Source of the DNA: Candidatus Latescibacterota bacterium | GTDB taxonomy: Bacteria > Latescibacterota > UBA2968 > GCA-2709665 | Reading direction: 5' to 3' | DNA length: 64,000 nucleotides | NCBI GenBank assembly: GCA_963662665.2 | Contig: CAXXJS010000010.1 | Location: forward strand, 96,001-160,000 | In this document: one piece after another, positions 1 through 53,908 of the stretch | Layout of the letters: each line of letters begins with the position of its first letter | How positions within the stretch are numbered: position 1 is the stretch's first letter | Made by a program: the position numbers and the translations under genes | The notes under the pieces: model-generated | Told to the model about the DNA's origin: nothing | Databases searched by the model: none | What the model saw: the letters and a program-made list of their open reading frames with translations, nothing else

Positions 1-1477
1 CGAGGAGGATGGTGGCAAAGGCAGTCCGTTCGGGCTCGGTCATAATCGGCTCTCCCCAGACAACGCCGCAGGCCGCCAGGTGATGCGCGAGCCGGTACCC
101 GAAACGCCCCACGAGATTGGGGCTGACGCCGTGGTCCAGGATCATGCGGAAGATTTCGGGATACACCGTGCGGTCGAAATCGCGGAATTTGCGGTTGGGG
201 TTGGTCCGCCAAAGGCGCAACGGCTGCTCCAGCAGGCTGAACCAGCGGCCGTCATCGGGTTCCCAATCGAGTTGCCGGAGGCACATCCCCACAATATTCG
301 GGTCGCCGCCGCACCCGGCCGCCCAGAGCATCTTCTCCGCGAGCGAAGGGTCGTTGTGGAGGGCAACGGCAGCGGCCGACGTCTCGGCTTCGAGTCCGGC
401 AGTGGTGTGATCCAGGATCCCGCCGTATCGAAACAGCAGTCCCTTCATCCGGTCGTCGCGGTTGTTGTACGCCGCGCCCACGGGATTGGCGCTGGCATAG
501 ATGCTGGCATTCGGATCCGCGCCGTTTTCGAGCAGGAGTTCGGCGATTTCATACCGGGAATTGCCCGCCGCATTGGACAGGGGCCCACCCCACGAATACG
601 GCCTGGATTCGTAGTGGTGCAACTGATGCCGGTCGTCCGGGTGCAGACCCAGGTCGAGCAGCAGGCGTACCATGTCGATATCGTCGTTCTGGACGGCGAT
701 CTGCAGAAGCCCGTCCCGCTCGCTGTCGTTGGACTGAAAGCGTTCGGGATGTTCCTTCGCGAACGCGCGAACGAAGTCGAAATCGCCAAGTGCGACCGCG
801 GACTCGATCGACTGCTCGCATCCCGCCTGCAGAAGGATGCCCGTGCAGATCAGACACCCTTCGTTGAGCGGCCTGTTGCGACCGCGCACATTAAGGACCG
901 CGCCGTCCAGGGGCGATTGGCCCTCGGGCGTGAGATGGGTGATATCGGCGCCCCGATCGAGCAGTTCGCGGACCAGCCGGTAACGGCCGTGCGACGCGGC
1001 CGCGTGAATCACGCTGCCGCCATTTCGATGACACGCATCCAGCAGTTCGGGCTGACGGTCCAGGATGTTGAGCGCGGCCTGCTCCCGCCCCTCCCGGACG
1101 GCCTCGAACAGCGCATCGTTCTCGTCGGTGATGGTGATATTCTTGCACGCGGCCAGCTTGCGCTTTTCGTCCTCCGCCCTGATCACGTGGACGATGTCGT
1201 CCAGGCCGCGTTCTCTCGCCATCGTAAACGCGCCGGTGGCGTCGCGGTGGGGATAGATGCCCGAGTTGTGGTCTGCACCGGCTTCCATGAGAACGCGAAC
1301 CGCATCGGCGTGCCGGTTCATCACCGCGTAGTGAATCGCGCGGTGTTCGTTGTTTTCAGCCATGTGTACGTTCACCAGATCGGGCTGCTCGTCAAGTATC
1401 TGCCTGATCCGCGAGACGTCGCCGCTGCCTGCCGCCTTACATAGATCCGCGACCCTGTAAGTTCCGTTGCCGGCCAT
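1..1477 (-). CDS. Ankyrin-repeat protein (3' end runs off the window)
   Basis: Not in the ORF track (no stop in window). Manual translation from ATG 1477: MAGNGTYRVADLCKAAGSGDVSRIRQILDEQPDLVN...AIHYAVMNRHADAVRVLMEAGAD...VIHAAASHGRYRLVRELLDRGAD...IAELLLENGADPN, i.e. repeated ankyrin motifs. GAAAGGAA SD upstream. Confidence 0.85.
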   Translation of the reverse strand, partial: MAGNGTYRVADLCKAAGSGDVSRIRQILDEQPDLVNVHMAENNEHRAIHYAVMNRHADAVRVLMEAGADHNSGIYPHRDATGAFTMARERGLDDIVHVIRAEDEKRKLAACKNITITDENDALFEAVREGREQAALNILDRQPELLDACHRNGGSVIHAAASHGRYRLVRELLDRGADITHLTPEGQSPLDGAVLNVRGRNRPLNEGCLICTGILLQAGCEQSIESAVALGDFDFVRAFAKEHPERFQSNDSERDGLLQIAVQNDDIDMVRLLLDLGLHPDDRHQLHHYESRPYSWGGPLSNAAGNSRYEIAELLLENGADPNASIYASANPVGAAYNNRDDRMKGLLFRYGGILDHTTAGLEAETSAAAVALHNDPSLAEKMLWAAGCGGDPNIVGMCLRQLDWEPDDGRWFSLLEQPLRLWRTNPNRKFRDFDRTVYPEIFRMILDHGVSPNLVGRFGYRLAHHLAACGVVWGEPIMTEPERTAFATILL

Positions 1478-1587
1478 TTCTGTTCCTTTCCGGGTTGCCC
1501 GTCATCCAATTTCGCCAGCGAAGCCTTCGCCGCCTGCGAAACACCTGAATTCGAACTGCAGAAACCGCAAGCCCCACCGAAAACAGC

Positions 1588-2145
1588 TCAAAGACCGTAC
1601 TCGAAGGTGAGTTCGCTCTTCACATCCGTTTTCTCGACACTCCCTTTGATATCCTCCATCATCTCCAGCCACCTGTGTTCCCTGAAATTCTCAAAGTCAA
1701 GGACGAATCCGGGTAGCGCTCTGCTCTCGATCCGGCCGGCCGGCTCCTGCCCCAGGACCTCGAACTTCCCGCCTCGAAGCTGGTACCACGTTGCCGGTTT
1801 GCCGTTCTCCACGAATAACGCCTCCTGGACGCCGGAAGCTTCGTAAACCTGGCGCTTCTTGCCCAGATCCGTAAATCCATGCTTGGATTCGATTTCAAGC
1901 ACGAAATTGGGCGGCCCCTCGTAGACCTGGTGATCGTGGTTCTTCTTGCAGATTTGTCGGGGACCGTTTCTTCGCACGATCACGCCTACGTTCGGATAAA
2001 CCATAACATCCGTCTTACCGGCATAGCTGAGCCGTACCGGTGGGAAGAGGACCACGTCCATACCTGTAGCAATCATCCGGTAGTAATTGATCACGGTAAG
2101 CACGTCCGTATGATATCGCGACACGTTCGCATCGGGTATCCACAT
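1588..2145 (-). CDS. Uma2/DUF820-family putative endonuclease
   Basis: GPPNFVLEIES...DLGKKRQVYEASGVQE...IESRALPGFVLD matches the Uma2 pattern; GGAGGGAGGA SD before ATG. Confidence 0.75.
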   Translation of the reverse strand: MWIPDANVSRYHTDVLTVINYYRMIATGMDVVLFPPVRLSYAGKTDVMVYPNVGVIVRRNGPRQICKKNHDHQVYEGPPNFVLEIESKHGFTDLGKKRQVYEASGVQEALFVENGKPATWYQLRGGKFEVLGQEPAGRIESRALPGFVLDFENFREHRWLEMMEDIKGSVEKTDVKSELTFEYGL

Positions 2146-2226
2146 GACTATCCTCCCTCCACGTCAATTCCGTTCGTAGTCATCCGGGTTCCTTTCTCAA
2201 TAAGCTCTCTATCCGGCTGGACGTTC

Positions 2227-4632
2227 TTATTCGTGGCGCAGAGCCTCGATGGGATTGGCGCTGGAGGCTCTATAGCACTGGAATCCGACAACCAGTAACG
2301 TGGCGAGAACAGATCCCAGTGCAGTGAAAGCAAAGGGAAAAAGGCCCATGTTTGCGCGATAGGCGAAATCCTGCAGCCATTCCTGCATGAGGACATAGGC
2401 AAACGGCCAGGCGATGAGATTGGCGATAAGCACCAGTTTTGTGAATTCGGCGCCCAACAGGACCGCGATTTCGCCGATGGATGCTCCGAAGACTTTGCGA
2501 ATGCCGATCTCTTTCCGGCGGCGTTCGCTCGTGTAGGCGGCAAGGCCAAGCAGGCCAATTGATGCGATGAGAAACGAGACTCCGAATCCAACCGCAAATA
2601 TGCGTTGGAAGCGCAGATATTTTCCGTAATTCACCTCCAGCCGGTCATCGAGAAACGCATACATGATTGGACGAACCGGGATAAAGGTCTTCCAGATTTC
2701 TTCGAGGCCCTGCATGGTTTCGCCGGCGTTTCCGGCGGCGAGCCGCAAGTTGACCACACGAAATGAACGTGGGCGCAAAACGAAGGCATTGGCGCGAAGT
2801 CTCTCGGTCAGCCGGCGCATGTGAAAGTCCTCTACAACGCCGATGATCCAGCCTTCATTATCGAGAAGCTTGAACGGTTTACCAACGGGATTCTCAAGTC
2901 CGAGTTTCTCCACCGCTGTTTCGTTGAGAATATATGCACTTTCAAAATCACTCCTGATGTCAGCGGAAAAATTGCGCCCCGCAACGAGATCAACCCCGAT
3001 CATGGGAAATAGATCCTCGTCAATGGCGTATTGCCGGATCTCGAAAGCAGCGCCCGATGGATCCAGGACCATTTTCCTTCTGCTTGTCCAGCCTTCGCCC
3101 GGAAGGCTGGCGGATGCGGTGGCAGCGAGCACGTCGGGGTGTTTGAGAAAGCGCTGTTTCACTTCGTTGTAAGTATTTCTCAGCGACCCGTCCACGTCAA
3201 AGATGCGGAGCGCGAGGATGTTCTCTTTCTTGAAACCAAGGTCTTTCTGCAGGACGTAGTCCAGTTGTACAAAGGCGACAAGGGCGACAAAAACAAGAAA
3301 GATGGAGATCGTAAACTGCAAAATCACGAGAACCCTGCGGGGGAATGATCCGCCGGATCCCGAGGCGGTTTGACTGTGCAACGCGGCAATGGGGGAAAAC
3401 CGGCTGAGGAGAAAGGCTGGATACATGCCGGAGAACAGACCGACCAGAACCGTTGCAGCCAGGAGTACAATCGCCATGTCCGGCTCTAGAAATATAGAGA
3501 GTGTACCCGTTTGTCCCACGATTTGTTGCCAGTAAGGCCGGGTTATGCCCGTGAGGATGAGGCACAAGGGCAGTGCGAGAAGGGTGAGCAAAACAGACTC
3601 GAGGAGGAATTGGAATGCCAATTGCCGTTGTCCCGCGCCAACGACCTTTCGCATACCCACTTCCTTGGCCCTCAGGGCCGCCCGCGCGGTAGAGAGATTG
3701 ACAAAGTTGATACAGGCGACGAACAAGACGAGCATGCCGATGGCTGCGAGGGCGCGAACCGCTTTGAGATCGCCGGCGCCAATGCCGGTACCCGGACCGC
3801 CGATGCCTTCGGGAAAATCTTCACGGCCATAGAGACGCGTACGCAAGAGTGATTGCAGGCGATGGCTGGTTGTGTTTTCCGGGTTTTCTTCGGGTATGAC
3901 CAGCGCACGCAATTTCTGCTCGGCTCGTTCCGGGTCCGCATCCTTGCGCAGACGGACAAAGGTTTGCACCCACCGAAATGAGGTGCGGAGTTCCCAGTCG
4001 GACCAGGCGCCCCGGACGCTTGCCGGCAGGGTTGCGGTTACAAAGTGGGGATTAAAATGCGTGTTTCGAGGCTGCTCGTCTAAAATTCCAGTAACAATGT
4101 AATCGCCCCACTGACCTTTGAGCACTTTGCCCATGGGGTCTACCCCGTTCGGGAAGAATTCGGCAACGGCTTCTTGCGAAATGACCACGCCGCCGGGGTG
4201 TGTGAGAGCCTTGTGGAGATCGCCGCGCGCTAAATTGATCCCCCAGAATACGAGATAGTTGGGATCGGCGTACCAGAAGGAACGGCGTTGCGCAAACTGG
4301 CGATATTGCACCCACCGATGGCCGGGACGGATGCGGTTGGCAGATTCAATTTCGGCAATGGATTCGATCATTCTCGGGGTGAGCGCACCGTGAGAATCGA
4401 TCTGATAATCCATTTTGTAGGGGGTGGTCAATTGCCGCAATACCCGATAGGTGCGATCGGCCCCGGGGCGGAACGTGTCGAAGCTGGTTTCGTGGGCAAC
4501 GTAGAGCCACGTGAGGAGCATGCACGTGAGACCGACGCTCAGGCCGAGGAGATTGGCCAGAATATACCATCGCTGGCGGATAATTTGCCGGACGGCGACT
4601 TTGAGAAAGTTGTATAGGATGGTTGAACTCAA
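2227..4632 (-). CDS. MacB/FtsX-type duplicated ABC transporter permease (ADOP-like, no adjacent ATPase)
   Basis: ACINFVNLSTARAALRAKEVGMRKVVGA and RRRKEIGIRKVFGAS motifs; C-terminal ANPIEALRHE; 801 aa. Start codon uncertain. Confidence 0.9.
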   Translation of the reverse strand: MSSTILYNFLKVAVRQIIRQRWYILANLLGLSVGLTCMLLTWLYVAHETSFDTFRPGADRTYRVLRQLTTPYKMDYQIDSHGALTPRMIESIAEIESANRIRPGHRWVQYRQFAQRRSFWYADPNYLVFWGINLARGDLHKALTHPGGVVISQEAVAEFFPNGVDPMGKVLKGQWGDYIVTGILDEQPRNTHFNPHFVTATLPASVRGAWSDWELRTSFRWVQTFVRLRKDADPERAEQKLRALVIPEENPENTTSHRLQSLLRTRLYGREDFPEGIGGPGTGIGAGDLKAVRALAAIGMLVLFVACINFVNLSTARAALRAKEVGMRKVVGAGQRQLAFQFLLESVLLTLLALPLCLILTGITRPYWQQIVGQTGTLSIFLEPDMAIVLLAATVLVGLFSGMYPAFLLSRFSPIAALHSQTASGSGGSFPRRVLVILQFTISIFLVFVALVAFVQLDYVLQKDLGFKKENILALRIFDVDGSLRNTYNEVKQRFLKHPDVLAATASASLPGEGWTSRRKMVLDPSGAAFEIRQYAIDEDLFPMIGVDLVAGRNFSADIRSDFESAYILNETAVEKLGLENPVGKPFKLLDNEGWIIGVVEDFHMRRLTERLRANAFVLRPRSFRVVNLRLAAGNAGETMQGLEEIWKTFIPVRPIMYAFLDDRLEVNYGKYLRFQRIFAVGFGVSFLIASIGLLGLAAYTSERRRKEIGIRKVFGASIGEIAVLLGAEFTKLVLIANLIAWPFAYVLMQEWLQDFAYRANMGLFPFAFTALGSVLATLLVVGFQCYRASSANPIEALRHE

Positions 4633-4706
4633 TGTTGGGCGTTGAGGACCCGTTTAACGACAAGATACGGAGTGACGGTGTGGTATCCCGCGGGGGCTGG
4701 TGACAT
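4629..4706 (-). pseudogene. 25-codon N-terminal remnant of a VOC/glyoxalase (PhnB-like) gene
   Basis: AAGGAGG SD, then MSPAPAGYHTVTPYLVVKRVLNAQH*. GYHTVTPYL is the typical N-terminus of PhnB-like VOC proteins. Confidence 0.6.
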
Positions 4707-4725
4707 GGTTCGCCTCCTTGTGCAT

Positions 4726-5514
4726 CTATGCATCCCAAACGTAGACTTTCTTGTGATAGACGGTCTCAAATCCATTGCGTTCGAGGTTGCCCAGAGATGT
4801 CTTCAGCACCTCCAGGGTCTCGCTACAGGCCACCCGGCATCCCAGTTCCGCGGCGCGATTCAGACGGGCTCTGATCAGCGCATTCTGGCCGCCCTTTCCT
4901 CTGTACGCCTCCGCGGTGCCGGCCCATCCGAGATAGGCGAAATCGCCATGGTGGACGAGTATCGCGGCGCTGACGGGCGTACCGCCGTCATATGCCACGA
5001 AGCGGTCGAATCCCTCACGATCGACACACTGGAAGAAAAACGAACATGGCCACGGCTCGAATATGCGTAGAATTGCATCCTTCCGGTTTTCGACCTCATG
5101 TCCGGAAACCCGGCGCACGGCCAGGTGGGTCGGGAACGGGGCCACGCTTTCGACGGGACGAATCAGCGTGGGATACGTGGTTCCTTTAAATGGTTTGAGA
5201 CCGCTGTCCCCCAGCCACACGATGATTTCCTCTTCCTGGGGGTTCGGACTCATCCAGAAGAAGAACCGTTGGACCTCCGACGCCTCGAATACGTTCAGTA
5301 TTTCCAATAAATCGGCCCTGGAAACCTTCCTCCCGCATCCGAAAAAATACACGCCGTTTCGATTTGCCGATGGAAAAGGCGATGCGGCGGACGTAGGATC
5401 CAGTGTGACGATGGCGCCTTCAATTGGTACCTGGATCTTCGAACCTGACGGAACGCAGTCGAGTTCCTTCTCCCTGATCGCCATCAATCGCCGCGCAACT
5501 TCATCCGGTCTCAT
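4726..5514 (-). CDS. GNAT family N-acetyltransferase
   Basis: Acetyl-CoA motif A: [25 protein letters not shown], followed by [10 protein letters not shown]. Confidence 0.85.
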
Positions 5515-5529
5515 GTCGGTGGGCGAAAC

Positions 5530-8400
<2,871 letters not shown>

Positions 8401-8446
8401 CAATGATCCAATCAGGAATACGAGGGAACGAAAGAACGGGATTACC

Positions 8447-8518
8447 CCTTTCCGTCTTCTCGTCTTCTCGCCTTTCCGTCTTCTCGTCTTCTCGCCTCTT
8501 CGTCTTCTCGTCTTCTCG
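8447..8518. repeat. Tandem repeat, 3 x 24 bp (CCTTTCCGTCTTCTCGTCTTCTCG) built from an 8-bp CGTCTTCT-like unit
   Basis: Directly visible; units at 8447-8470, 8471-8494 and 8495-8518 (third has 2 mismatches). Confidence 0.95.
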
Positions 8519-8519
8519 T

Positions 8520-9458
8520 CTACAGGAGTTCGACGCTGTCACCATCATAATAGTAGGCGGGTTCTTCAACTTCAATCCTGCTCTTCTCGGTCAGGTGGAC
8601 CGGACTCGACAGTTTCTGGATGATTTCCTGCCGGACAAGCCATTCACAGGCTGCCTCGAGGCCGCCGCCCTGGATCTTCTTTTGAAAATAGTCGCTGATT
8701 TCCGAAAATTTGCGCACTTCGGACGATTCCGCGAGGTAGTCCAGAAGAGGACGAAACAGGTCGCAGGTCTTTTTCTCAAGATAGTCGTTGACCAGATCGA
8801 GTACGCGTTTGACGGAGTCGCGAGTCTTGACCTGACTGACGAAATCCGTGTAGATAGCATTGAATAACTGCGGATTGTATTTGAGCGCCTGATGGACCAC
8901 CTCCCGGCCGGGCGCTTCGTTGTGCATGAGCACCTGGATCGATGCCAGTTCTCTGACGACCTGCATGAGCCACCAGAAGCTGTATTCGAAGTCTTTTTTC
9001 AGGTAAAAGTACTTCTCGGCTTTATTGAGCGACGGTATCAGGAAGGAAGCGTATCTCATCAGTTGAAATGCGCGGTCTCGCGTTCCAATGCGATCGAAGG
9101 CATGGTACCACTTCGCCACGGACTCGTCTCTTGTAAAGAGAAGGGTGCTATTCGAAAACGTAAAATCCAGCCATCCGCCGGCGAGGTCGCCCTCGATGCG
9201 GCGTTTGAAAACGCTGCGGGAAACCCGTTGCGCCTGGATATTGACGTCGTCTTCACAGAGTGTGACGTGTCCTTCTTTCACGCCATCCTGCATGATGATC
9301 CACAGGTCGATGTCCGAGTTCACCCAGACTTCGTCGTAGGACAGACTGCCGAACAGAATGGCAGCGAGTACCCACCGGTCATTCTCGAGCTTCGCGACCA
9401 GAGACGACAGCGCACTCCGGTAACGATTCTCGACAGATTCGCGTTCGGCGACGGGCAT
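8520..9458 (-). CDS. Pol-beta superfamily nucleotidyltransferase-domain protein
   Basis: [21 protein letters not shown] matches the hG[GS]x9-13DhD motif; GGAGA SD before ATG 9458. Confidence 0.8.
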
Positions 9459-9583
9459 GGATTCTCCACGTTTCGTATTAGTGAGGGGCAGAAGTCCATG
9501 TATAATCAGGTTCGAATCAGGTGTCAAGGTCAATTCCCTGAATTCGCCGTTCTCCCGTCGGATGCTTTCCGGCTTCCGTTCTC

Positions 9584-9612
9584 TTGACGAAACCGAACGT
9601 TTCCGGTATATT
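9584..9612 (+). promoter_or_regulatory. Sigma70-type promoter for the RAPP uORF / metal-uptake operon
   Basis: TTGACG-17 bp-TATATT. Confidence 0.65.
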
Positions 9613-9660
9613 TATAGGTGTAACCAGCTTTGGACTTGTACTCTCCCGGAGACGGTAGGG

Positions 9661-9939
9661 ATGTTTTCTTCCTCCAGACAGATTCATCCTCTTTTTTTGT
9701 TCGCTCTGGCGATATTCGCGGCCTACCTCGCGATATTTTTGCTCACCGCGTACCCCGAACACGACCACGACCAACAACAATGTACTGTCTGCGCCTGGTT
9801 GAATAGCTTGAGCGTCGTTTTGCCGGCAGTACTGGCGGTTCAATTCTGCTTTCTGCACTTCCGTCAATTGTTCTCCTCGCGCCGCGTACTTCGCACTTCC
9901 TTCCTTCTTCCCGACGGACGCGCACCTCCCGTGTCCTGA
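9661..9939 (+). CDS. DUF2946-like (CruR/CutF-like) leader protein with CxxC and C-terminal RAPP arrest motif
   Basis: 92 aa: N-terminal hydrophobic segment, HDHDQQQCTVC, C-terminal DGRAPPVS*; lies upstream of a TonB-dependent receptor operon. Confidence 0.8.
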   Translation: MFSSSRQIHPLFLFALAIFAAYLAIFLLTAYPEHDHDQQQCTVCAWLNSLSVVLPAVLAVQFCFLHFRQLFSSRRVLRTSFLLPDGRAPPVS

Positions 9940-10246
9940 TCCATCCTCCCGTGTCGTCAAGACACGCCTTTCGACGTTTCAAAATATATTCCAACTTAAG
10001 TAACTCCGGCTCGGGCCTTTGCCCGAATCTGCACATGCGGGAACCCGGGATTATCCTGCGTTCGGGTGGACGTTAGTCCGCCGACCGGCATTGTGCCATC
10101 CCCGCCTCTCTCCGGAGGTCGTCCGCCGCCTGAGGCATCGGCCTGTCGCCAGTATGTCGACAGATACGAATCATGCCAACCAGGGAGGGCGGACGTCCAC
10201 GCGAGGTTCGCGACAGAATGAAATACTGGCATATAGGAGAACATTG

Positions 10247-11497
10247 ATGTTCAGCACGCTGAAAATGCAACAATCCCCTCTGTTAATCGCAGCGGCGGCG
10301 GTAGCGGTAATCCTGGCCGGTTGCGGAAAAGACGACCCCATTACGCCACAGGAAGAACATTACGAAGCCGAAGGCCTCGTCCTCCTCGACTCCGGCCAGC
10401 GGTTCTTCCGATATTTCCAGGGCAGGATAGACTCGGGCGACGGCCGGGCGGAAGCCCTGGAAGTCACTCACGGCGAAGTCACCGGCAAGTGGAGCATCCG
10501 CTTCCTGGACAGGGACGGAAACGAAATGGCCCCGCCCACCGGCGAGGGCTTCACGTTCACGTGGGAAATTGCGGACAAGTCAATTGTGGAAGTCGTCCAG
10601 GACGCGGCGGAAGCGGGCCAATTCGTCTTCGCCCTGCGCGGCCTCGAAGATGGCGAAACCACCATCAGGCTTCAGATTTCGCACGAAGGGCACGTGGACT
10701 TTACCACGCTGCCAATCCCGGTGCACGTGGTAGGAGAGTTTGAGGCCGAAGGGATTGTTATCATCGAGTCCGGCGTTCGATTCTTCCGTTATTTCCAGGG
10801 CGAGATCGACTCAAACGAAGGTCGGGTATCGGAACTCTCGGCCCCAATCGGCCTGACGCCCCACTGGCGCATCGCGTTTCTGGATGAACACGGCGAAGAA
10901 ATAGATCCCCCGGACGATCCCGAATTCTCGTTCGCCTGGATCATTGCCGACTCCGACATCCTCGAAGTCCACCAGGACGAGGGCGACGAGGGTTCGTTCG
11001 ACTTCCACCTGCGCGGCTTGCAGGAGGGCGAAACCACCATTGTATTTGGAGTCAGACACGAAGGTCACATCGACTACCGCACCCTACCCATTCCCGTACA
11101 CGTGGAGTCACAGGAGGGCCAGCACGGCGAACCCGTGGGCGTGCGGCTTAAGGAAGAAGACAGCGGCGAAGTGCTGGTGGAGGCGCCCGTGGCGGGCGAA
11201 GGCACAGCCAGCGATGCGCTGTCGGTAGCCGTTGGCGATACAACCGACCACATCGCCACGTTCTTCTTTGATGAACACGACGTGGAATTCCAGCCGGAAG
11301 CACCCGACGAGACGCTGGGTATTGCGGTGGGCGACACCTCGTTGCTCGCCATCGATCCGCCTGTCGCGCCCGAATACTGGGCCTTCAGACTCATCGGCAA
11401 AAAGGCCGGCACGACCACCATAACCCTTTCCACTCTCCACGACGGTGAGGCGGAAGACACGTTCGCGCCAATTTCGGTGGAGATCACCGCACCGTAG
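10247..11497 (+). CDS. Acidic lipoprotein with tandem ~126-aa repeats and HEGH motifs (putative metal-binding surface lipoprotein)
   Basis: AGGAGA SD; lipobox ILAG-C; two repeats (EAEG..RFFRYFQG..HEGH..TLPIPVHV) plus a degenerate third. Confidence 0.8.
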   Translation: MFSTLKMQQSPLLIAAAAVAVILAGCGKDDPITPQEEHYEAEGLVLLDSGQRFFRYFQGRIDSGDGRAEALEVTHGEVTGKWSIRFLDRDGNEMAPPTGEGFTFTWEIADKSIVEVVQDAAEAGQFVFALRGLEDGETTIRLQISHEGHVDFTTLPIPVHVVGEFEAEGIVIIESGVRFFRYFQGEIDSNEGRVSELSAPIGLTPHWRIAFLDEHGEEIDPPDDPEFSFAWIIADSDILEVHQDEGDEGSFDFHLRGLQEGETTIVFGVRHEGHIDYRTLPIPVHVESQEGQHGEPVGVRLKEEDSGEVLVEAPVAGEGTASDALSVAVGDTTDHIATFFFDEHDVEFQPEAPDETLGIAVGDTSLLAIDPPVAPEYWAFRLIGKKAGTTTITLSTLHDGEAEDTFAPISVEITAP

Positions 11498-11562
11498 CAG
11501 GAAGCGCGGCGGGAGGGTGGTTCTTGCCCTCCCGCCGGCTGCAACGCGGGAGTACAATCCAG

Positions 11563-13839
11563 ATGGCTGATTTACACAGGATAAATCGTCTGCACCCGGG
11601 TGGCGGCTCCAGCTACCGTTCCACCATCCGGCTGCACTTTATCCGGGCGGCGCTCGCGTTGCTGTCCGTGGCGTGTCTTGCGGGTATCAGCTCGGCAACT
11701 CAGGCCGTGTTGATCGAAGGGTACGTCTTCGACAGCGAAACCGGACTGCCCGTCGGGAACGTGAACGTCCGGCCCGCAGATCATGCCGCAGTCGCGTCTA
11801 CGGACGAAAAAGGCCGGTTCGTGCTTCACCTGTCTCCTAGTGACTATCGGCTGTTACTTACGCACGTCGGCTATGAGGAAACGCGCCACGAACTGAACAT
11901 CTCGGGTGCGAAGCATCCCGTTGTCTATCTGGAACTGGCGCGACTGGATCTCAAGCTGGACCCCCTGGACGTTGTGGCCAAACGCGCTGAAACCCGGTTT
12001 GAAGAACTGCATGAAGCCACCCGTGTGCTTTCGGGCGACGAACTCAGGAAGAAATACAGCATCACATTGGCCGAGACCATGAAGAACGAACTCGGCGTTG
12101 CCATCCAGAGCATGGGTCCGGCGCCGGCCCGACCCGTTATCCGTGGGCTCAGCGGCGACCGTGTACAGATCAACGTCGACGGCATTCAGTCACAGGACCT
12201 CTCCGCAACATCGGCCGATCATGCGGTAACCGTCGAGACCTTCAACGCGGAACGCCTGGAAATCATCCGCGGGCCCCGCACGCTCCTGCACACGTCCACG
12301 GCCGGCGGCGGCGTCATCAACGTCGTCAAGCACAAGATCCCCGAAACCCGGCCGGAGCGCTTGTTCGGAAGCGTGGGCGCCTACGGGGAAACGGCGAACC
12401 GTGGTTATTTCTCATCCGCCGCCCTTACAGCGCCCGTGGGGCCGCTCGCGTTGCATGCCGAGTCAACCTACCGGGATACCAGGGACATCCAGACCCCGGT
12501 CGGCCGGCTTGCCAATACGCCCATCAACACCCACACATATACCTTGGGCATGTCCTACGCGGGCGACCGGGGATACGTTGGCGCTTCTTTCGATCAGTTC
12601 AACACTCAGTACGGCATTCCGGGCGGATTCATCGGCGCGCACCCAAACGGCGCGGACCTCGATATCATCCGTCGGGTTTTCGACGGGAAGGCAGTATACA
12701 GGCCCGACAGCCAGATCATCGACAGAGTGGAGGCGGGATTCACAAAAGCCTATTACTATCATCTCGAGTTCGAATCCAGCGGCAGAATCGGATCCGAGTT
12801 CCTTTTTCATGACTACAGCGGCGACCTCAAACTCTACCTGAACACGGGAAACAAGGAGCAAAACACCGTTCTCACAACCGGCTTTGAACACCGCAATCTC
12901 AAGCTGGGCGCTTATGTCTTCACCCCGCCCACTAGAAAGCAGAACGTCAACCTCGGGTTGTATCATGAAACAGCCTATCGCAATATCGAACTGCAGGCCG
13001 CGGCCCGGTACACCTATGCGACCTTCGACCCGCGCCTCCAGGCGAACTCCAACAAGATCCTGGACGTAGATCGCACCTTCCATACATGGTCCGCGGCATT
13101 CAGCCCGCTCGTGCCCATCACGGACCAGCTTACAGCGGGCTTCAGCCTCAGCCGCTCCCAGCGCGCGCCTACCATCGAGGAACTCTATAACGAGGGCCCG
13201 CACCTTGCCGCTTACACCTTTGAGAAGGGCAACGTCGAACTCAATACCGAACGCAGTTTCGGCGCGGAGGCATTCATTCACTACCTGCAGCCGGGGTTCG
13301 ACCTGGTCTTCACGGGATTCTGGAACGAATTCGACGACTACATCGCGCCACGAAATACCGGAGAAATCAACTTTGCTCAACTACTTCCCATCTACGCCGC
13401 GGAGGGTATAGACGCGAGAATGATGGGCGTGGAAACCCACCTGAAATGGCGTCCGAACGCGCGACTGGAACTGGAGATGAATCTGAGTCACGTGCGCGGC
13501 GAAAACCGGGACGACCGAATGCCCCTGCCCGAAATGCCGCCGCTCAAGTTCGTCGGGAGCGCAACCTACAGGCACTCCTGGCTTACCGGGGGAGGAACCA
13601 TGGAGTGGGCCACGGGACAGAAACGCGTGGATACCTACGAAGACCCCACCGCCGGTTATTCCGTCTTCGGCGTTTACATTCAACGCGATATCCTTGCAAA
13701 TCGGGCCCGCCACAGCATTATTCTTTCCCTGGAGAATCTATTCGACACGGAATACCGCAACCACCTGTCGCGCATCCGATCGGTAATGCCCGAAACGGGA
13801 AGGAGTCTGAAGTTGAATTACAAGATGTATTTCTTTTAG
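11563..13839 (+). CDS. TonB-dependent receptor, ZnuD-like
   Basis: Signal peptide; N-terminal carboxypeptidase-regulatory-like domain; plug motif GPAPARPVIRGLSGDRV...SADHAV; RAPTIEELYNEGPH; terminal Phe. Confidence 0.9.
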   Translation: MADLHRINRLHPGGGSSYRSTIRLHFIRAALALLSVACLAGISSATQAVLIEGYVFDSETGLPVGNVNVRPADHAAVASTDEKGRFVLHLSPSDYRLLLTHVGYEETRHELNISGAKHPVVYLELARLDLKLDPLDVVAKRAETRFEELHEATRVLSGDELRKKYSITLAETMKNELGVAIQSMGPAPARPVIRGLSGDRVQINVDGIQSQDLSATSADHAVTVETFNAERLEIIRGPRTLLHTSTAGGGVINVVKHKIPETRPERLFGSVGAYGETANRGYFSSAALTAPVGPLALHAESTYRDTRDIQTPVGRLANTPINTHTYTLGMSYAGDRGYVGASFDQFNTQYGIPGGFIGAHPNGADLDIIRRVFDGKAVYRPDSQIIDRVEAGFTKAYYYHLEFESSGRIGSEFLFHDYSGDLKLYLNTGNKEQNTVLTTGFEHRNLKLGAYVFTPPTRKQNVNLGLYHETAYRNIELQAAARYTYATFDPRLQANSNKILDVDRTFHTWSAAFSPLVPITDQLTAGFSLSRSQRAPTIEELYNEGPHLAAYTFEKGNVELNTERSFGAEAFIHYLQPGFDLVFTGFWNEFDDYIAPRNTGEINFAQLLPIYAAEGIDARMMGVETHLKWRPNARLELEMNLSHVRGENRDDRMPLPEMPPLKFVGSATYRHSWLTGGGTMEWATGQKRVDTYEDPTAGYSVFGVYIQRDILANRARHSIILSLENLFDTEYRNHLSRIRSVMPETGRSLKLNYKMYFF

Positions 13840-13881
13840 TTTCCACCCGGAGTCGACGTCGAGGCGCCACCACTCCCTACC

Positions 13882-14628
13882 TCAATTCTCCCCCAACATC
13901 GCCCGCCGCATCACGCGTTCCACAATGCGTGGAAACCAGGTACCCAGAATAGCCGCCGTACGGTTTCCGAAACCTGGGACTACCAGACGTTTTCTCTTCC
14001 GGATGCCCCGAAGGATGGCCTCCGCCAGGTCTTCCGGCGCCATGCGTTTTTCCTCGCACGAGTTGTCAGGGCTGTACCGGCGGGCGTGGCCGGTTCGCGT
14101 GGGACCCGGAAAGACCGTCATGACGTGTATTCCGCGCGGGGCGAGCGCGACCGAAAGACTTCGCGCGTACGACGCCAGCCCGCTCTTTGTGGCCGCGTAC
14201 GTCGCGGCCCCCGGATAACTTACGTAGTGGGATAGTGAGGATACGAAAACGAGGGATCCGCCAGGGACAATGCGGCTGGCCTTCAGCAACTTCGCCGTTA
14301 ACGCCATGGGCGCGTAGAGATTAACGGCAATCACGCACTCCTGCAATGCCAGGCTCACTTCCGGAAAACGTCCGACGGCGTTGATGCCCGCGTTGTGAAT
14401 CAGCACGTCGATCCCATCCATATGTACCAATTGTTCGTGAACCCGCGCGATGCCCGCATCGGTACCCAGGTCTGCAACGACAAACCGCGCATTCAGTTCC
14501 CGCTCGAGATTGGCCGCACCCCCGGCATCCACGTCCACGCCGGTCACGGAATACCCTGAACGAACAAACCTTCGGGCGAGCGCCTCGCCAATACCATTGG
14601 CCGCGCCGGTAATGACCGCGTGTTTCAT
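13882..14628 (-). CDS. SDR family oxidoreductase
   Basis: MKHAVITGAANGIG, HNAG, YAATK; ATG overlaps the upstream stop (ATGA). Confidence 0.88.
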   Translation of the reverse strand: MKHAVITGAANGIGEALARRFVRSGYSVTGVDVDAGGAANLERELNARFVVADLGTDAGIARVHEQLVHMDGIDVLIHNAGINAVGRFPEVSLALQECVIAVNLYAPMALTAKLLKASRIVPGGSLVFVSSLSHYVSYPGAATYAATKSGLASYARSLSVALAPRGIHVMTVFPGPTRTGHARRYSPDNSCEEKRMAPEDLAEAILRGIRKRKRLVVPGFGNRTAAILGTWFPRIVERVMRRAMLGEN

Positions 14629-25085: not shown

Positions 25086-26783
25086 TCTGAATAATTCACA
25101 AAAAAGGTAGTTTCCTTACCCAAGTCATTGTATTATATTATGGTTACGCGAATAACCTGATAACAATGAACCGGGAGGAAACTACCGTGGCAGGTCAAGA
25201 TAAACAACAAAGGATGTCTTTCGCAAGTGTTTCTGGCAAACGGGTAGAAGCCGCCTTCGACGGGGGCATGCTGACCAGCGACACCGGGGCGATGCTGCTT
25301 CGAGAGGTGGAATCCAAAATCGGCATTTTGTGTCGGATCGTCGAGGCGATAACAGATCGTCGGCATCCAAGTTACGTGGATCACCCGTCGGTGGACCTGC
25401 TCCGTCAGCGTGTCTTTCAGATGGCGTGTGGGTATGAAGATGCGAACGACTGCAATACGTTGCGTAGCGACCCCGGCTTCAAGGCGGCCTGCGATCGGTT
25501 GCCGGTCACCGGTGCCAACCTGGCCAGTCAACCCACGATGAGTCGGTTCGAGAACCGGATCACCAGAGGTGATTTATATCGGATCGCGACGGCCTTTGCC
25601 GATGCGTTTATCGCCTCGTATAAGCACCCCCCCGAAGCCATCCTGTTGGATATCGATGACACGGAAGACAAGGTGTATGGATCCCAGCAGTTGTCGTTAT
25701 TCAATGCGTATTTCAAGGGCTATTGCTACCAACCCCTGCATATCTATGAAGGGCAAACCGGCAAGTTGATCACGACGGTCTTGCGTCCGGGCCGCCGACC
25801 CACGGGCAAAGAGATCGTGTCGATTCTCAAACGGGTGATCGCCTACCTGCGTCACGCATGGCCCGATGTCAAGATCCTGTTGCGTGGCGATTCACACTTT
25901 TCGTGTCCGGAAGTACACACGATGTGTGACGAAAACGATGTGTTTTTTATCCTCGGACAAAGCGGAAACGCGGTGCTGCTGCGGTTGGCACAGCCCTTGA
26001 TGGACCAGGCCAAAGCGCTGTATGCCGATGGGGGAAAACCTGTGCGCCTGTATCGCTGTTGGGACTATCAGGCCGGCAGCTGGTCTTCCCCACGCCGCAT
26101 CATCTGCAAGGCAGAAGTCAACCCGCAAGGTCACAATGTCCGATTCGTGGTCACCAACCTGAACGGCGCACAACCGTCATTCATCTACAAAACCGCTTAT
26201 TGCTCACGCGGCAGGATGGAAAACTTCATCAAGAATCACAAGACCTTTCTGCATTCCGATCGCACCTCTTGCCACACCTTCCATGCCAATCACTTCCGGC
26301 TCTTTCTCCACAGCGCCGCCTATGTGTTGGTACACGCCCTGGCCCATATCGGGTTGCGCGGCACCACGTGGACGAACGCCCAGTTTAATACGCTGCAAAA
26401 CCGCATCTTGAAAGTCGCCGGGCGCGTTTGTGAACTGAAAACCAAAATCACGTTCCATCTGCCAACGGCGTTTCCACTCAAACACCTCTATCGAACCATG
26501 CTCTACAATCTGGGAACCGCCATGCCATAACGTTTCCATCTGGACCAGGCCGCCTTCACGTCTTGATTGCTACCATCAAAAGCCATGGAGAAGTCTGTGC
26601 TCTTGGCAGTCACAGCAGGGTCATCCTGACGCCTCCACCCGACCCTGCTACAAAAACACACCCTGAAATCGCTTGAAAACGCCAGTTCCGCACAGCCAGC
26701 TTTCTCCTGCGTTCTTAGACTCACTCGAAAGCTGCTTCTGCTGCACGAATCTGCAATCCCTGACGATTCATGAATAGGTCAGG
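25086..26783 (+). mobile_element. IS1380-family insertion sequence, 1698 bp, TTAA target duplication
   Basis: Imperfect terminal IRs TCTGAATAATTCAC / ATGAATAGGTCAGG; TTAA at 25082-25085 and 26784-26787; removing the element restores the host ORF. Confidence 0.93.
25166..26530 (+). CDS. IS1380-family DDE transposase
   Basis: FDGGMLTSDTG, GYEDANDC, LASQPTMSRFEN, LDIDDT, RGDSHF, YCSRGRMENFIK; ORF intact. Confidence 0.93.
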   Translation: MNREETTVAGQDKQQRMSFASVSGKRVEAAFDGGMLTSDTGAMLLREVESKIGILCRIVEAITDRRHPSYVDHPSVDLLRQRVFQMACGYEDANDCNTLRSDPGFKAACDRLPVTGANLASQPTMSRFENRITRGDLYRIATAFADAFIASYKHPPEAILLDIDDTEDKVYGSQQLSLFNAYFKGYCYQPLHIYEGQTGKLITTVLRPGRRPTGKEIVSILKRVIAYLRHAWPDVKILLRGDSHFSCPEVHTMCDENDVFFILGQSGNAVLLRLAQPLMDQAKALYADGGKPVRLYRCWDYQAGSWSSPRRIICKAEVNPQGHNVRFVVTNLNGAQPSFIYKTAYCSRGRMENFIKNHKTFLHSDRTSCHTFHANHFRLFLHSAAYVLVHALAHIGLRGTTWTNAQFNTLQNRILKVAGRVCELKTKITFHLPTAFPLKHLYRTMLYNLGTAMP

Positions 26784-53101: not shown

Positions 53102-53908
53102 ATGGCGTTCGCGTCCTTCAACTCCCTGCGCCGTCAAAGGCTCGGGTTTTTCCAGGAGCGTATTCACTACCCCCCTCCGTTGTCACCCCCGTGGATCGCC
53201 CCGTTCACTGTGCGCACCAAGAGTCCCGATGTTGACCTCAAGCGCCGCTATCCAAAGACCTTTGGCGTTTCGGTTGTCCTCTCCTCAATTCTCCTCGCCG
53301 TTCTGTGCCTCGTCTTTCCGAAATATGAATTTCGCAGCAAGTCATCCTACACGGCGCCTGTTATCATTACATTGGAAGACATCCCCGAGACCTCTCAGGC
53401 CCCAAAACCCGAAGCCGAAGAAGTGATCCTGGGCGCAGGTGACCCGGACGGCGTGGCCGTCGTTGACACCGTGGAAGACGAGAAGTCGGACATTGACTTT
53501 CTCGCCAACCTTCAAGTCGATGATACGCTGGGCGATCCGGACCGGAAGCTGGACGAGGAAGCTGTAGATTTCTGGGCCGTCTCGAAAGAACCCGTACTGG
53601 TGCGCGAGGTCCTGCCCATCTACCCCGGAAACGCCCACGAGGCCGGACTCGAAGGGGTTGTGTTTGTCAAATTCGCCGTTGGTACGGACGGACGGGTCAA
53701 AGAGGCCTCGATCTTGAAAGGCCCCCGGATATTTCACGCGTCCGCGCTGGAAGCCGTCTACCGGTTTGTCTTCAGACCTGCCCTTCAGAACGACAAGCCC
53801 GTCGCGGTCTGGATGACGCGCCCCATACGCTTTCGCATTGTGGACAACTTGCTTGAAGCGCGGCCCGCCCAACAAGCCCAGACGCCGCCGGCCCCCCTCG
53901 CACGATAG
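53102..53908 (+). CDS. Energy transducer TonB family protein
   Basis: TM helix, acidic linker, TonB_C motif PIYPGNAHEAGLEGVVFVKFAVGTDG..FRPALQNDKPV; start uncertain. Confidence 0.85.
   Translation: MAFASFNSLRRQRLGFFQERIHYPPPLSPPWIAPFTVRTKSPDVDLKRRYPKTFGVSVVLSSILLAVLCLVFPKYEFRSKSSYTAPVIITLEDIPETSQAPKPEAEEVILGAGDPDGVAVVDTVEDEKSDIDFLANLQVDDTLGDPDRKLDEEAVDFWAVSKEPVLVREVLPIYPGNAHEAGLEGVVFVKFAVGTDGRVKEASILKGPRIFHASALEAVYRFVFRPALQNDKPVAVWMTRPIRFRIVDNLLEARPAQQAQTPPAPLAR

Follow-up and report, generated by a model that had tools for sequence, protein, structure and literature searches.

A candidate metal-sensing arrest peptide at the head of a lipoprotein and ZnuD-like receptor operon in Candidatus Latescibacterota

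In Bordetella pertussis, an operon encoding a TonB-dependent transporter is headed by CruR (Bp2923). This DUF2946 protein, the product of an upstream open reading frame (uORF), has CXXC and RAPP motifs 45 residues apart (PMC9426467). Arrest of the ribosome at RAPP blocks Rho termination, and copper, sensed via the CXXC, relieves the arrest (PMC9426467). Homologues of CruR are described as mostly proteobacterial (PMC9426467). Arrest of CruR has been shown in vitro by toeprint, and RSPP is reported to be partly arrest-competent (PMC12992588). A structural mechanism for RAPP arrest has also been described (PMC10951233). In Rhodobacter capsulatus, copper-induced stalling on CutF melts a stem-loop that hides the Shine-Dalgarno sequence of cutO (PMC9973294; bioRxiv 10.1101/2025.02.05.636593). 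The same reports count 5,334 CutF-like proteins with Cys and/or His motifs and place TonB-like genes among their common neighbours. Their authors consider that the family is not all copper-specific and suggest nickel or cobalt (PMC9973294; bioRxiv 10.1101/2025.02.05.636593). Here, we describe a locus with features of both systems. It lies in a stretch of 64,000 nucleotides (nt) of DNA from a Candidatus Latescibacterota bacterium (contig CAXXJS010000010.1), referred to below as the window. We think it probable that three genes, encoding a leader peptide, a lipoprotein and a TonB-dependent receptor, form an operon controlled by a cis-acting, metal-sensing arrest peptide of the CruR/CutF type.

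The locus resembles that of CruR, as the latter is described, in several respects. In both, the leader heads an operon that encodes a TonB-dependent transporter, and the peptide carries an export signal and a CXXC. RAPP lies 2-3 residues from the stop codon at a fixed distance from the CXXC, a long spacer follows, and the regulated genes look like an uptake system (PMC9426467). Conversely, the window leader has 92 amino acids (aa) where CruR has 145, and the two motifs are 42 rather than 45 residues apart. It scores below the Pfam cut-off, has a His-rich loop before the CxxC, and is separated from the receptor gene by a lipoprotein gene. The receptor is ZnuD-like and without Cys, whereas that of CruR is copper-type. 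The window leader is also strongly complementary to a ribosome-binding site (RBS), and its lineage is labelled Latescibacterota rather than Proteobacteria. With CutF, the locus shares a nascent exported sensor and the family's Cys and/or His motifs; CutF arrest unmasks the Shine-Dalgarno sequence of the next gene. However, CutF is reported to have CxxxC, PPP and a cleaved Sec signal, to control a detoxifying oxidase, and to stall when copper is present. Its masking stem-loop is in the spacer, whereas the element that we call the anti-RBS is in the leader coding sequence, ~370 nt 5' of the RBS.

An earlier note on this DNA, made without database searches, had listed a promoter, a 92-aa open reading frame (ORF), a lipoprotein with HEGH motifs and a TonB-dependent receptor. 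All were found where it had placed them. The elements of the locus are as follows.

9584..9612, + strand: sigma-70-like promoter; -35 TTGACG at 9584-9589, 17-nt spacer and -10 TATATT at 9607-9612, matching 10 of 12 consensus positions.
9648..9651, + strand: GGAG, the likely Shine-Dalgarno sequence of the uORF, 9 nt 5' of the ATG.
9661..9939, + strand: 92-aa leader ORF (the uORF), a divergent DUF2946/CutF-like arrest-peptide candidate; ATG at 9661, TGA at 9939.
9688..9750, + strand: first hydrophobic segment (~residues 10-30, from hydropathy), signal-anchor or export signal; Arg6 precedes it, and the positive-inside rule suggests its topology.
9754..9792, + strand: acidic His-rich loop and CxxC (PEHDHDQQQCTVC, residues 32-44), the putative metal-sensing site, from residue conservation.
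9787..9858, + strand: second hydrophobic segment (~residues 43-66, from hydropathy).
9862..9877, + strand: anti-RBS, uORF codons R68-S73 (CGTCAATTGTTCTCCT), complementary to the lipoprotein RBS and start codon.
9919..9930, + strand: codons of the arrest motif R87-A88-P89-P90, followed by Val-Ser-stop (9931-9939); the predicted stall position follows published RAPP arrest.
9940..10246, + strand: leader-to-gene spacer, 307 nt; the first 80 nt are C-rich and G-poor, a candidate for a rut-like (Rho utilisation) site.
9950..9966, + strand: conserved hairpin CGTGTC-GTCAA-GACACG, 11 nt 3' of the uORF stop.
10235..10249, + strand: lipoprotein RBS (AGGAG, spacer, ATG; AGGAGAACATTGATG); GGAG is invariant in the aligned loci.
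10247..11497, + strand: lipoprotein, 416 aa; lipobox LAGC, three immunoglobulin (Ig)-like beta-sandwich domains and conserved His clusters (H38, H146/H149, H271/H274/D276).
11563..13839, + strand: TonB-dependent receptor, 758 aa, ZnuD-like; N-terminal CarboxypepD_reg-like, Plug and barrel domains.

The leader peptide begins M-FSSSRQIHP and continues with the hydrophobic segment at ~10-30, PEHDHDQQQCTVCAW, the hydrophobic segment at ~43-66, and a tail (residues 68-92) ending LLPDGRAPPVS-stop. Means over 15 residues on the Kyte-Doolittle scale reach 2.7 in the first segment and 2.1 in the second. On hydropathy alone, the first segment, with Arg6 before it, is an export signal. The tail contains five Arg and one acidic residue. 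HDHDQQQCTVC occupies residues 34-44, with CTVC at 41-44. The earlier note had called RAPP terminal. The motif is indeed close to the end, at residues 87-90, but the two-residue tail Val-Ser intervenes before the stop. The window contains 923 six-frame stop-to-stop segments of at least 40 aa. Four have R[AS]PP within 12 residues of the stop, and just one combines this with CxxC/H 36-48 residues before. That motifs of the RAPP type stall ribosomes is borne out by the arrest of CruR in vitro (PMC12992588). The note had also credited both CruR and CutF with DUF2946, CxxC and RAPP acting in cis. This description suits CruR (PMC9426467), but CutF has CxxxC and PPP (bioRxiv 10.1101/2025.02.05.636593).

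We aligned 16 diverse uORF products, down to 21% identity, to assess residue conservation. The only residues shared by all are C41, R87, P89 and P90, with C44 and W46 close to invariance. C44 is present in 15 of the 16, the other sequence (locus L027) having CxxH in place of CxxC. All RAPP-type copies have 42 residues from CxxC to R-x-P-P, and the family as a whole has 42-44; between 2 and 7 residues follow the motif before the stop. RSPP replaces RAPP in the distant loci L018, L022, L023, L024 and L028 and in the second copy of L019. All 31 uORFs of the family that we examined have His in the loop before the CxxC, the count ranging from 2 to 8. In some copies, the loop is enlarged by extra H-D-H-x-x-C units. 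Differences in length from the window peptide are confined to the His-rich loop or to residues after R-x-P-P. Two short motifs, a fixed ruler and an export segment are thus kept while the remainder is free to vary. Hence, a cis-acting arrest peptide accounts for the pattern better than a folded protein does.

A word-index search with the uORF peptide identified 10 close relatives, 61-92% identical. To collect more distant loci, we scanned genomes, one per species, with an alignment of lipoprotein relatives as the query. Twenty-eight loci were returned. Because the query was the lipoprotein, and not the uORF, co-occurrence of the uORF with the operon could be judged without bias. An intact uORF is directly 5' of the lipoprotein gene in 24 of 27 assessable loci; L016, which starts inside the lipoprotein gene, was left out. 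Hence, the uORF is kept upstream of the orthologous genes; the earlier note had named lack of such conservation as a refutation. Loci without an intact upstream uORF are L012 (RAPP lost), L013 (none upstream) and L026 (disrupted by insertion sequences). The receptor gene is downstream of the lipoprotein gene in 26 of 27 loci, L007 being without it; here, L008, which ends too early, was left out. Record titles of these metagenome-assembled genomes name the phylum as Candidatus Latescibacterota/Latescibacteria or Gemmatimonadota/Gemmatimonadetes; others read 'uncultured bacterium'. By these titles, the lineage is not proteobacterial, as the note had surmised.

Conservation extends to the promoter. 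In all 16 aligned loci, CTTGAC is unchanged, as is most of TATATT; sequences 5' of the promoter are unalignable, and the flanks diverge. The block around the GGAG of the uORF, CTCTTCCGGAGACGGTAGGGATG, is conserved among the aligned loci. Three promoter-like sites occur in 9300-14100, compared to 1.4 +/- 1.3 in shuffled sequences. The spacer between -35 and -10 contains a GAAAC...GTTTC inverted repeat. We do not claim it as an operator because it is conserved in the close clade only. An Rfam scan of 9400-10400 returned no match at E <= 1, so no known riboswitch or leader was identified there.

Several loci carry additional or altered copies of these elements. A second uORF cassette is found 3' of the lipoprotein gene in L002 (7343-7645), L009 (7577-7879), L010 (7132-7434), L011 (7571-7885), L012 (7633-7929) and L013 (~7573-7845). 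It precedes a second lipoprotein gene in L009 and L012, and the receptor gene in L002, L010, L011 and L013. Some genomes thus carry one leader per cistron, and several hold two or three paralogous operons. In the four loci where the cassette precedes the receptor gene, the 5' end of that gene (~8190 in L002, ~8230 in L010, ~8348 in L011 and ~8220 in L013) encodes a lipoprotein-like signal peptide, MFSTLK..., with the lipobox Cys replaced (LSGRG). There, the leader, the spacer and the first codons seem to have been duplicated together and fused to the receptor gene. In L012, the first leader copy (5409-5693) is decayed: it reads ...EGRASRV and runs on, with RAPP lost. The second copy in L013 (7573-7845) is also decayed; a stop replaces the conserved Trp and RAPR replaces RAPP. 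Both genomes retain another intact operon. L019 has two different leaders in series, RAPP type (4862-5146) then RSPP type (5563-5859). Between them, in an N-containing stretch, are ORF fragments like the MerC-family gene of L023. In L026, three transposase/integrase genes (Mutator family, rve and HTH_Tnp_1; 6763-9415) separate a truncated lipoprotein gene from the receptor gene. This is the only assessable locus without any recognisable uORF copy. In L007 (6001-8323), dehydrogenase genes are directly 3' of the lipoprotein gene and there is no receptor gene. In L004 (7320-9592), the receptor match is split in two frames near residue 424, a possible frameshift or assembly error.

The earlier note had proposed a search against PF11162 (DUF2946). 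Most relatives of the window peptide match this family: 7 of the 16 diverse sequences and 11 of 13 further ones do so at E <= 1. All of these hits reach the last profile position, 117. Among the relatives, one protein (P0063) passes the cut-off, with 25.5 bits against 23.7. P0063 was also recovered by our family profile, at E 2.6e-5. On its sequence, we count 45 residues from CQIC to RAPP and a tail of three, as described for CruR. The window peptide aligns over residues 32-90 with positions 55-117 of the 117 in the profile. Three results weigh against placing it in the family. Its score is sub-threshold (E 0.015, 16.5 bits; gathering cut-off 23.7 bits). Its CxxC-RAPP spacing of 42 is 3 shorter than the 45 +/- 1-2 of DUF2946. 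Finally, an exhaustive profile search reached no canonical DUF2946 protein other than P0063. That search, of 1.84 billion representative proteins, gave six hits at E <= 1e-3, two of which are unrelated repeat proteins. So few hits indicate a narrow clade. Across our family, the spacing of 42-44 is just as fixed as in DUF2946 but 1-3 residues shorter. In the ESM Atlas, unnamed Acidobacteriota clusters of 83-120 aa ranked first and a cluster with 54% PF11162 members was at rank 20; we take this as a lead only. Judging from these comparisons, we treat the window peptide as a distant relative working like CruR and CutF, and not as a certified member of PF11162.

We judged the relatedness of the receptor by family-model and Protein Data Bank (PDB) scores. 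The Plug (54.7 bits) and barrel (79.2 bits) domains are both above Pfam cut-offs. The closest solved relative is ZnuD (E 4.5e-36 with the single protein, 4.8e-48 with a profile), OprC being next at 1.3e-17. Among 28 NCBIfam families, the best match is ZnuD (NF038289, 202.1 bits); the TonB-copper model gives 67 bits against a cut-off of 472. In Neisseria meningitidis ZnuD (PDB 4RDR), the zinc ligands are reported to be Asp99, His100, Glu340 and His499 (PMC4557270). The plug-loop Asp-His pair and the barrel His have counterparts in the window receptor: D219/H220 align with Asp99/His100, and H547 with His499. This pairing assumes an offset of 14 residues between chain and paper numbering, deduced from the two matches themselves. 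All three residues are invariant in 14 of 14 receptor orthologues. The window receptor differs from ZnuD in its extra N-terminal CarboxypepD_reg-like domain and in the lipoprotein gene that precedes it. Its sole Cys, Cys38, is in the signal peptide and the mature protein has none. The OprC-type copper site is described, in the abstract of that work, as CxxxM-HxM. Hence, a site of this type is excluded.

Genes upstream of the uORF in two distant loci also bear on the metal. In L023, a GTPase gene on the same strand as the uORF encodes a protein that passes the equivalog cut-off for the zinc chaperone ZigA (608.6 bits against 600). It belongs to a group at 287-5547, 5' of the uORF, with genes for an ATP-binding cassette (ABC) ATPase and a MacB-like permease. 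L024 (768-3838) has a CobW-family gene in the position matching the L023 GTPase, plus a MerC-family gene. The upstream clusters of L023 and L024 also encode two unknown proteins, a small CxxC-pair protein and a MerC-family membrane protein with a His-rich C-terminus. Together, these upstream genes look like a larger metal (zinc) acquisition cluster. A further parallel is CC2720 of Caulobacter crescentus. A table of the Zur regulon lists this DUF2946 gene, with a predicted Zur site, at the head of the zinc-related czrCBA cluster (PMC4176598). The parallel is one of description; the cluster is for efflux and not uptake, and CC2720 is not treated as an arrest peptide in that account (PMC4176598).

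Several points weigh against zinc. The classic ligand pair for Cu(I) is CxxC. Both studied relatives of the leader, CruR and CutF, sense copper. The 202.1 bits of the receptor are far below the ZnuD equivalog cut-off of 950, and Glu340 of ZnuD falls in an unaligned stretch. No gene for Zur, the zinc regulator that acts on ZnuD transcription, was seen among the window genes; Zur boxes were not searched for. The chance that the leader senses zinc is, in our view, a little over one half. We favour zinc because ZnuD is the closest solved relative of the receptor, three of the four zinc ligands appear to be kept, the mature receptor has no Cys, a distant locus has a ZigA gene, and 2-8 His adjoin the CxxC in every family uORF examined. 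The suggestion of zinc rather than copper in the earlier note thus gains support from the ZnuD ligands, the lack of mature Cys and the ZigA equivalog; as for metal specificity, it remains, as it was in the note, an inference.

The lipoprotein has a lipobox, ...AVILAGC26GKDD, in which C26 is invariant in 16 of 16 sequences. The HEGH motifs are at residues 146-149 and 271-274 and the domain carrying them is duplicated. Shorter relatives have one His-bearing domain and a C-terminal domain. H38, H271, H274 and D276 are invariant in the alignment. An AlphaFold model, made with the 16-row alignment, has a mean pLDDT (predicted local distance difference test) of 83.6 and a pTM (predicted template modelling score) of 0.43. 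The model consists of a disordered lipid-anchored linker followed by three beta-sandwich domains. A fold search of the PDB returned generic tandem Ig-like matches only (surface-layer proteins, invasin, filamin and cadherins), and no functional lead. Profile comparison with PDB sequences found nothing meaningful, and the ESM Atlas returned unnamed clusters from related phyla only. No Pfam family matched the lipoprotein at curated cut-offs. PF26181 is listed on relatives in the protein database. Complex prediction with receptor residues 135-758 and lipoprotein residues 165-416 gave a score of 0.00 and a mark of 0.32, a result with no bearing on whether the two bind. The order of the genes, taken with the conserved His and Asp residues, leads us to infer that the lipoprotein may be a metal-capturing partner of the receptor.

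Next, we consider how arrest might be coupled to expression. The best partner of the lipoprotein RBS (10235-10249) is the anti-RBS at 9862-9877 within the uORF. This ranks first of 3,962 windows within +/-6 kb, at -24.0 kcal/mol compared to -17.6 kcal/mol for the next. The full anti-RBS:RBS duplex has -24.6 kcal/mol, which was reached by none of 300 uORF shuffles. In the free mRNA, the RBS is predicted to be paired with a probability of 0.98. Across loci, the uORF contains the best RBS partner to be had within +/-6 kb in 6 of 23 cases, and at most five windows are better in 13 of 23. For the 3' end of a uORF, pairing is stronger with the RBS of the same locus than with an RBS from another locus (means of -14.1 and -11.6 kcal/mol; permutation p = 3e-4, 17 loci). 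In the distant loci L018, L019, L027 and L028, the last uORF codons and the stop form perfect helices of 8-12 base pairs with the RBS. Spacers are ~300 nt long in the clade of the window and 49-164 nt in distant loci. This complementarity between leader and RBS fits masking of the RBS in the manner of CutF.

Other results count against such masking, or complicate it. The anti-RBS of the window is ~50-60 nt 5' of the predicted P site of the stalled ribosome. Hence, one stalled ribosome would not cover the anti-RBS and queued ribosomes would be needed. Masking the footprint of a stalled ribosome during folding left pairing of the window RBS unchanged (0.98 to 0.98). Across 23 loci, the same treatment lowered RBS pairing by at least 0.3 in 4 only, with no clean switch. 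The duplex between the 3' end of the window uORF and the RBS is unremarkable, at -10.9 kcal/mol; 348 of 1,968 background windows do as well. Covariation in this helix within the window's clade was not beyond that in shuffled controls. In several loci, the best uORF partner of the RBS is far from the arrest site. Scans of GC-rich 30-mers from the 3' end of the uORF found many equally strong partners within 1 kb downstream and were uninformative. We also considered a relay, with an anti-anti-RBS, for the window. This was dropped because the footprint-masking folds gave no support.

The spacer offers a second route. Its first 80 nt after the uORF stop contain 26 C and 13 G (C/G = 2.0). In the hairpin at 9950-9966, 92.8% of cells are paired across 15 loci, and two pairs are changed on both sides. 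RNAalifold, applied to the spacer of 15 loci, found little covariation (covariation term -0.43 kcal/mol). The 11-nt sequence CCTCCCGTGTC occurs twice as an exact direct repeat, first at 9925-9935, within the codons for Pro-Pro-Val-Ser, and again 20 nt later at 9945-9955. The second copy contains the 5' arm of the hairpin. We rejected the hairpin as a terminator; it has no adjacent U-tract. An intrinsic terminator after the uORF was likewise rejected, since terminator-like hits on the + strand are only inside coding sequence (9716-9733 and 11904-11918). It is plausible that both routes, masking of the RBS and Rho termination, operate; they are not exclusive.

We propose the following sequence of events. 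At arrest, the CxxC/His loop would be just out of the exit tunnel or entering the membrane. Metal bound to this loop would alter the ease with which arrest is released. Ribosomes held or queued on the 3' part of the leader would bar the anti-RBS (9862-9877) from the RBS (10235-10249). They would also keep Rho off the C-rich stretch after the stop, and the lipoprotein and receptor would be made. Conversely, once the leader is read through and the ribosomes are gone, the RBS would be masked and/or transcription terminated. Because the regulated genes resemble an uptake system, the logic is likely that of CruR, in which metal relieves arrest; uptake would then be shut off. The likely metal would be zinc.

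Four other explanations of the locus need to be weighed against this one, and two of them concern details of the same sensor. The first is that the leader, like CruR and CutF, senses copper, which would make the operon a system for copper uptake. The CxxC, kept throughout save for the CxxH of L027, is in accord with copper, as are the copper responses of both characterised relatives and the rank of OprC as second-best solved relative of the receptor. However, a receptor with no mature Cys cannot form the OprC-type site and the ligands that it conserves are of the ZnuD type. In addition, no PCuAC, YcnI, CopC or multicopper oxidase gene was found in eight scanned distant-locus neighbourhoods or in the window, and L023 has the ZigA gene. 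We therefore regard copper as unlikely, if far from negligible. A stronger contender, to which we still give less than even chances, is that the operon is controlled mainly through Rho-dependent attenuation of transcription in the 307-nt spacer, as with CruR, the RBS complementarity being secondary or fortuitous. The long untranslated spacer with its C-rich, G-poor first 80 nt would suit Rho, and the conserved hairpin after the stop could be a pause site. Judging from RAPP structures, a ribosome at RAPP would occupy the mRNA as far as the stop codon or thereabouts, adjoining the C-rich stretch. Moreover, masking a single stalled ribosome does not free the window RBS. Against this stand the spacers of only 49-164 nt in distant loci, the perfect anti-Shine-Dalgarno helices at the stop codon there, and the window anti-RBS, which ranks 1 of 3,962; the two mechanisms, again, are compatible.

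The other two explanations dispense with metal-responsive arrest. The leader ORF could encode a stable membrane protein of two helices that assists uptake, for instance as a metal-binding accessory or a chaperone; RAPP would then be incidental and the peptide would have no regulatory role. Two hydrophobic segments, charges that fit a hairpin topology and metal-ligand residues agree with this. Nevertheless, conservation outside the hydrophobic segments is limited to CxxC, R-x-P-P and the distance between them. Proteomes reportedly show strong avoidance of RAPP-like motifs, save near the C-terminus of small regulatory peptides (PMC12992588). Furthermore, the gene is always first, with a spacer to the next gene, and the cassette is duplicated before individual cistrons in several loci. 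We consider a stable membrane protein improbable. Least probable of all, and barely credible to us, is a monitor of secretion or insertion that reports Sec or YidC activity, like SecM, ApdA/ApdP or MifM. Like ApdA, ApdP and SecM, the window leader is a small exported or membrane peptide, encoded 5' of a regulated gene, with an R-A-P-P core close to its C-terminus (PMC10951233, PMC12992588). It fits the description of the ApdA/ApdP class, R-A/G-P-P near the C-terminus, and the RSPP of distant loci is, in print, partly arrest-competent. It has an export signal, and its second hydrophobic segment is placed where insertion into the membrane could pull on the nascent chain. However, the described peptides monitor export and precede sec or yidC genes. 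Here, the downstream genes encode a lipoprotein and a TonB receptor, apparently for metal uptake, and not Sec or YidC components; the CxxC and His-rich loop are conserved. We therefore retain a metal-sensing arrest peptide as the probable explanation of the locus.

The genes flanking the operon are unrelated to it and all on the opposite strand: a nucleotidyltransferase gene and UvrA upstream, two short-chain dehydrogenase genes downstream. Between the start of UvrA and the end of the nucleotidyltransferase gene is a tandem repeat at 8447-8521 (24-nt unit x 3.0, or 8-nt unit CGTCTTCT x 8.6). A gene for a TonB C-terminal-domain protein, a possible energiser of the receptor, is at 53102-53905, ~40 kb from the operon. 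Elsewhere in the window, a DDE transposase gene (25166-26527; DDE_Tnp_1_4, 521 bits) adjoins a sigma-70-type factor gene, and an ankyrin-repeat protein gene is at the window edge (2-1477, - strand).

Much of the framework for this locus is already in print. The leader class is known, as are its association with TonB receptors and its occurrence across Gram-negative phyla, and the possibility of members that do not sense copper has been raised. In particular, a 2025 study reported RAPP/RGPP uORFs 5' of TonB receptors across Gram-negative phyla (PMC12992588). Hence, the case is less unusual than the earlier note implied. The locus adds a relative that is divergent and sub-threshold, from a phylum without earlier studies of the class. 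A shift to zinc is plausible here, and the RBS-masking element is clear enough to be tested. The word 'zinc' is absent from the main text of PMC12992588 and PMC9973294. A full-text search found no paper that joins zinc, an arrest peptide and TonB-dependent receptors. It is possible, although we would not count on it, that the locus represents the first zinc-responsive nascent-chain sensor. A His-rich/CxxC loop between membrane segments would tune release from RAPP and so set levels of a ZnuD-like receptor and its lipoprotein. Sensor, spacer and anti-RBS would form a portable cassette, duplicated in some genomes, within a CutF-like clade that Pfam misses and that may reach Acidobacteriota.

For the family, these observations mean that searches with family models miss part of this leader class, and that an uncharacterised family of His-bearing Ig-like lipoproteins travels with ZnuD-like receptors. 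The related loci amount to a natural mutational series: RAPP or RSPP, CxxC or CxxH, two to eight His, different positions of the anti-RBS, and duplicated and decayed copies. To date, copper is the only metal for which sensing by a nascent peptide has been demonstrated, and this in just two proteobacteria. The locus described here is compact, well conserved and open to experiment. It is a candidate for the same mode of sensing in an uncultured and distant phylum, where it is probably tuned to zinc.

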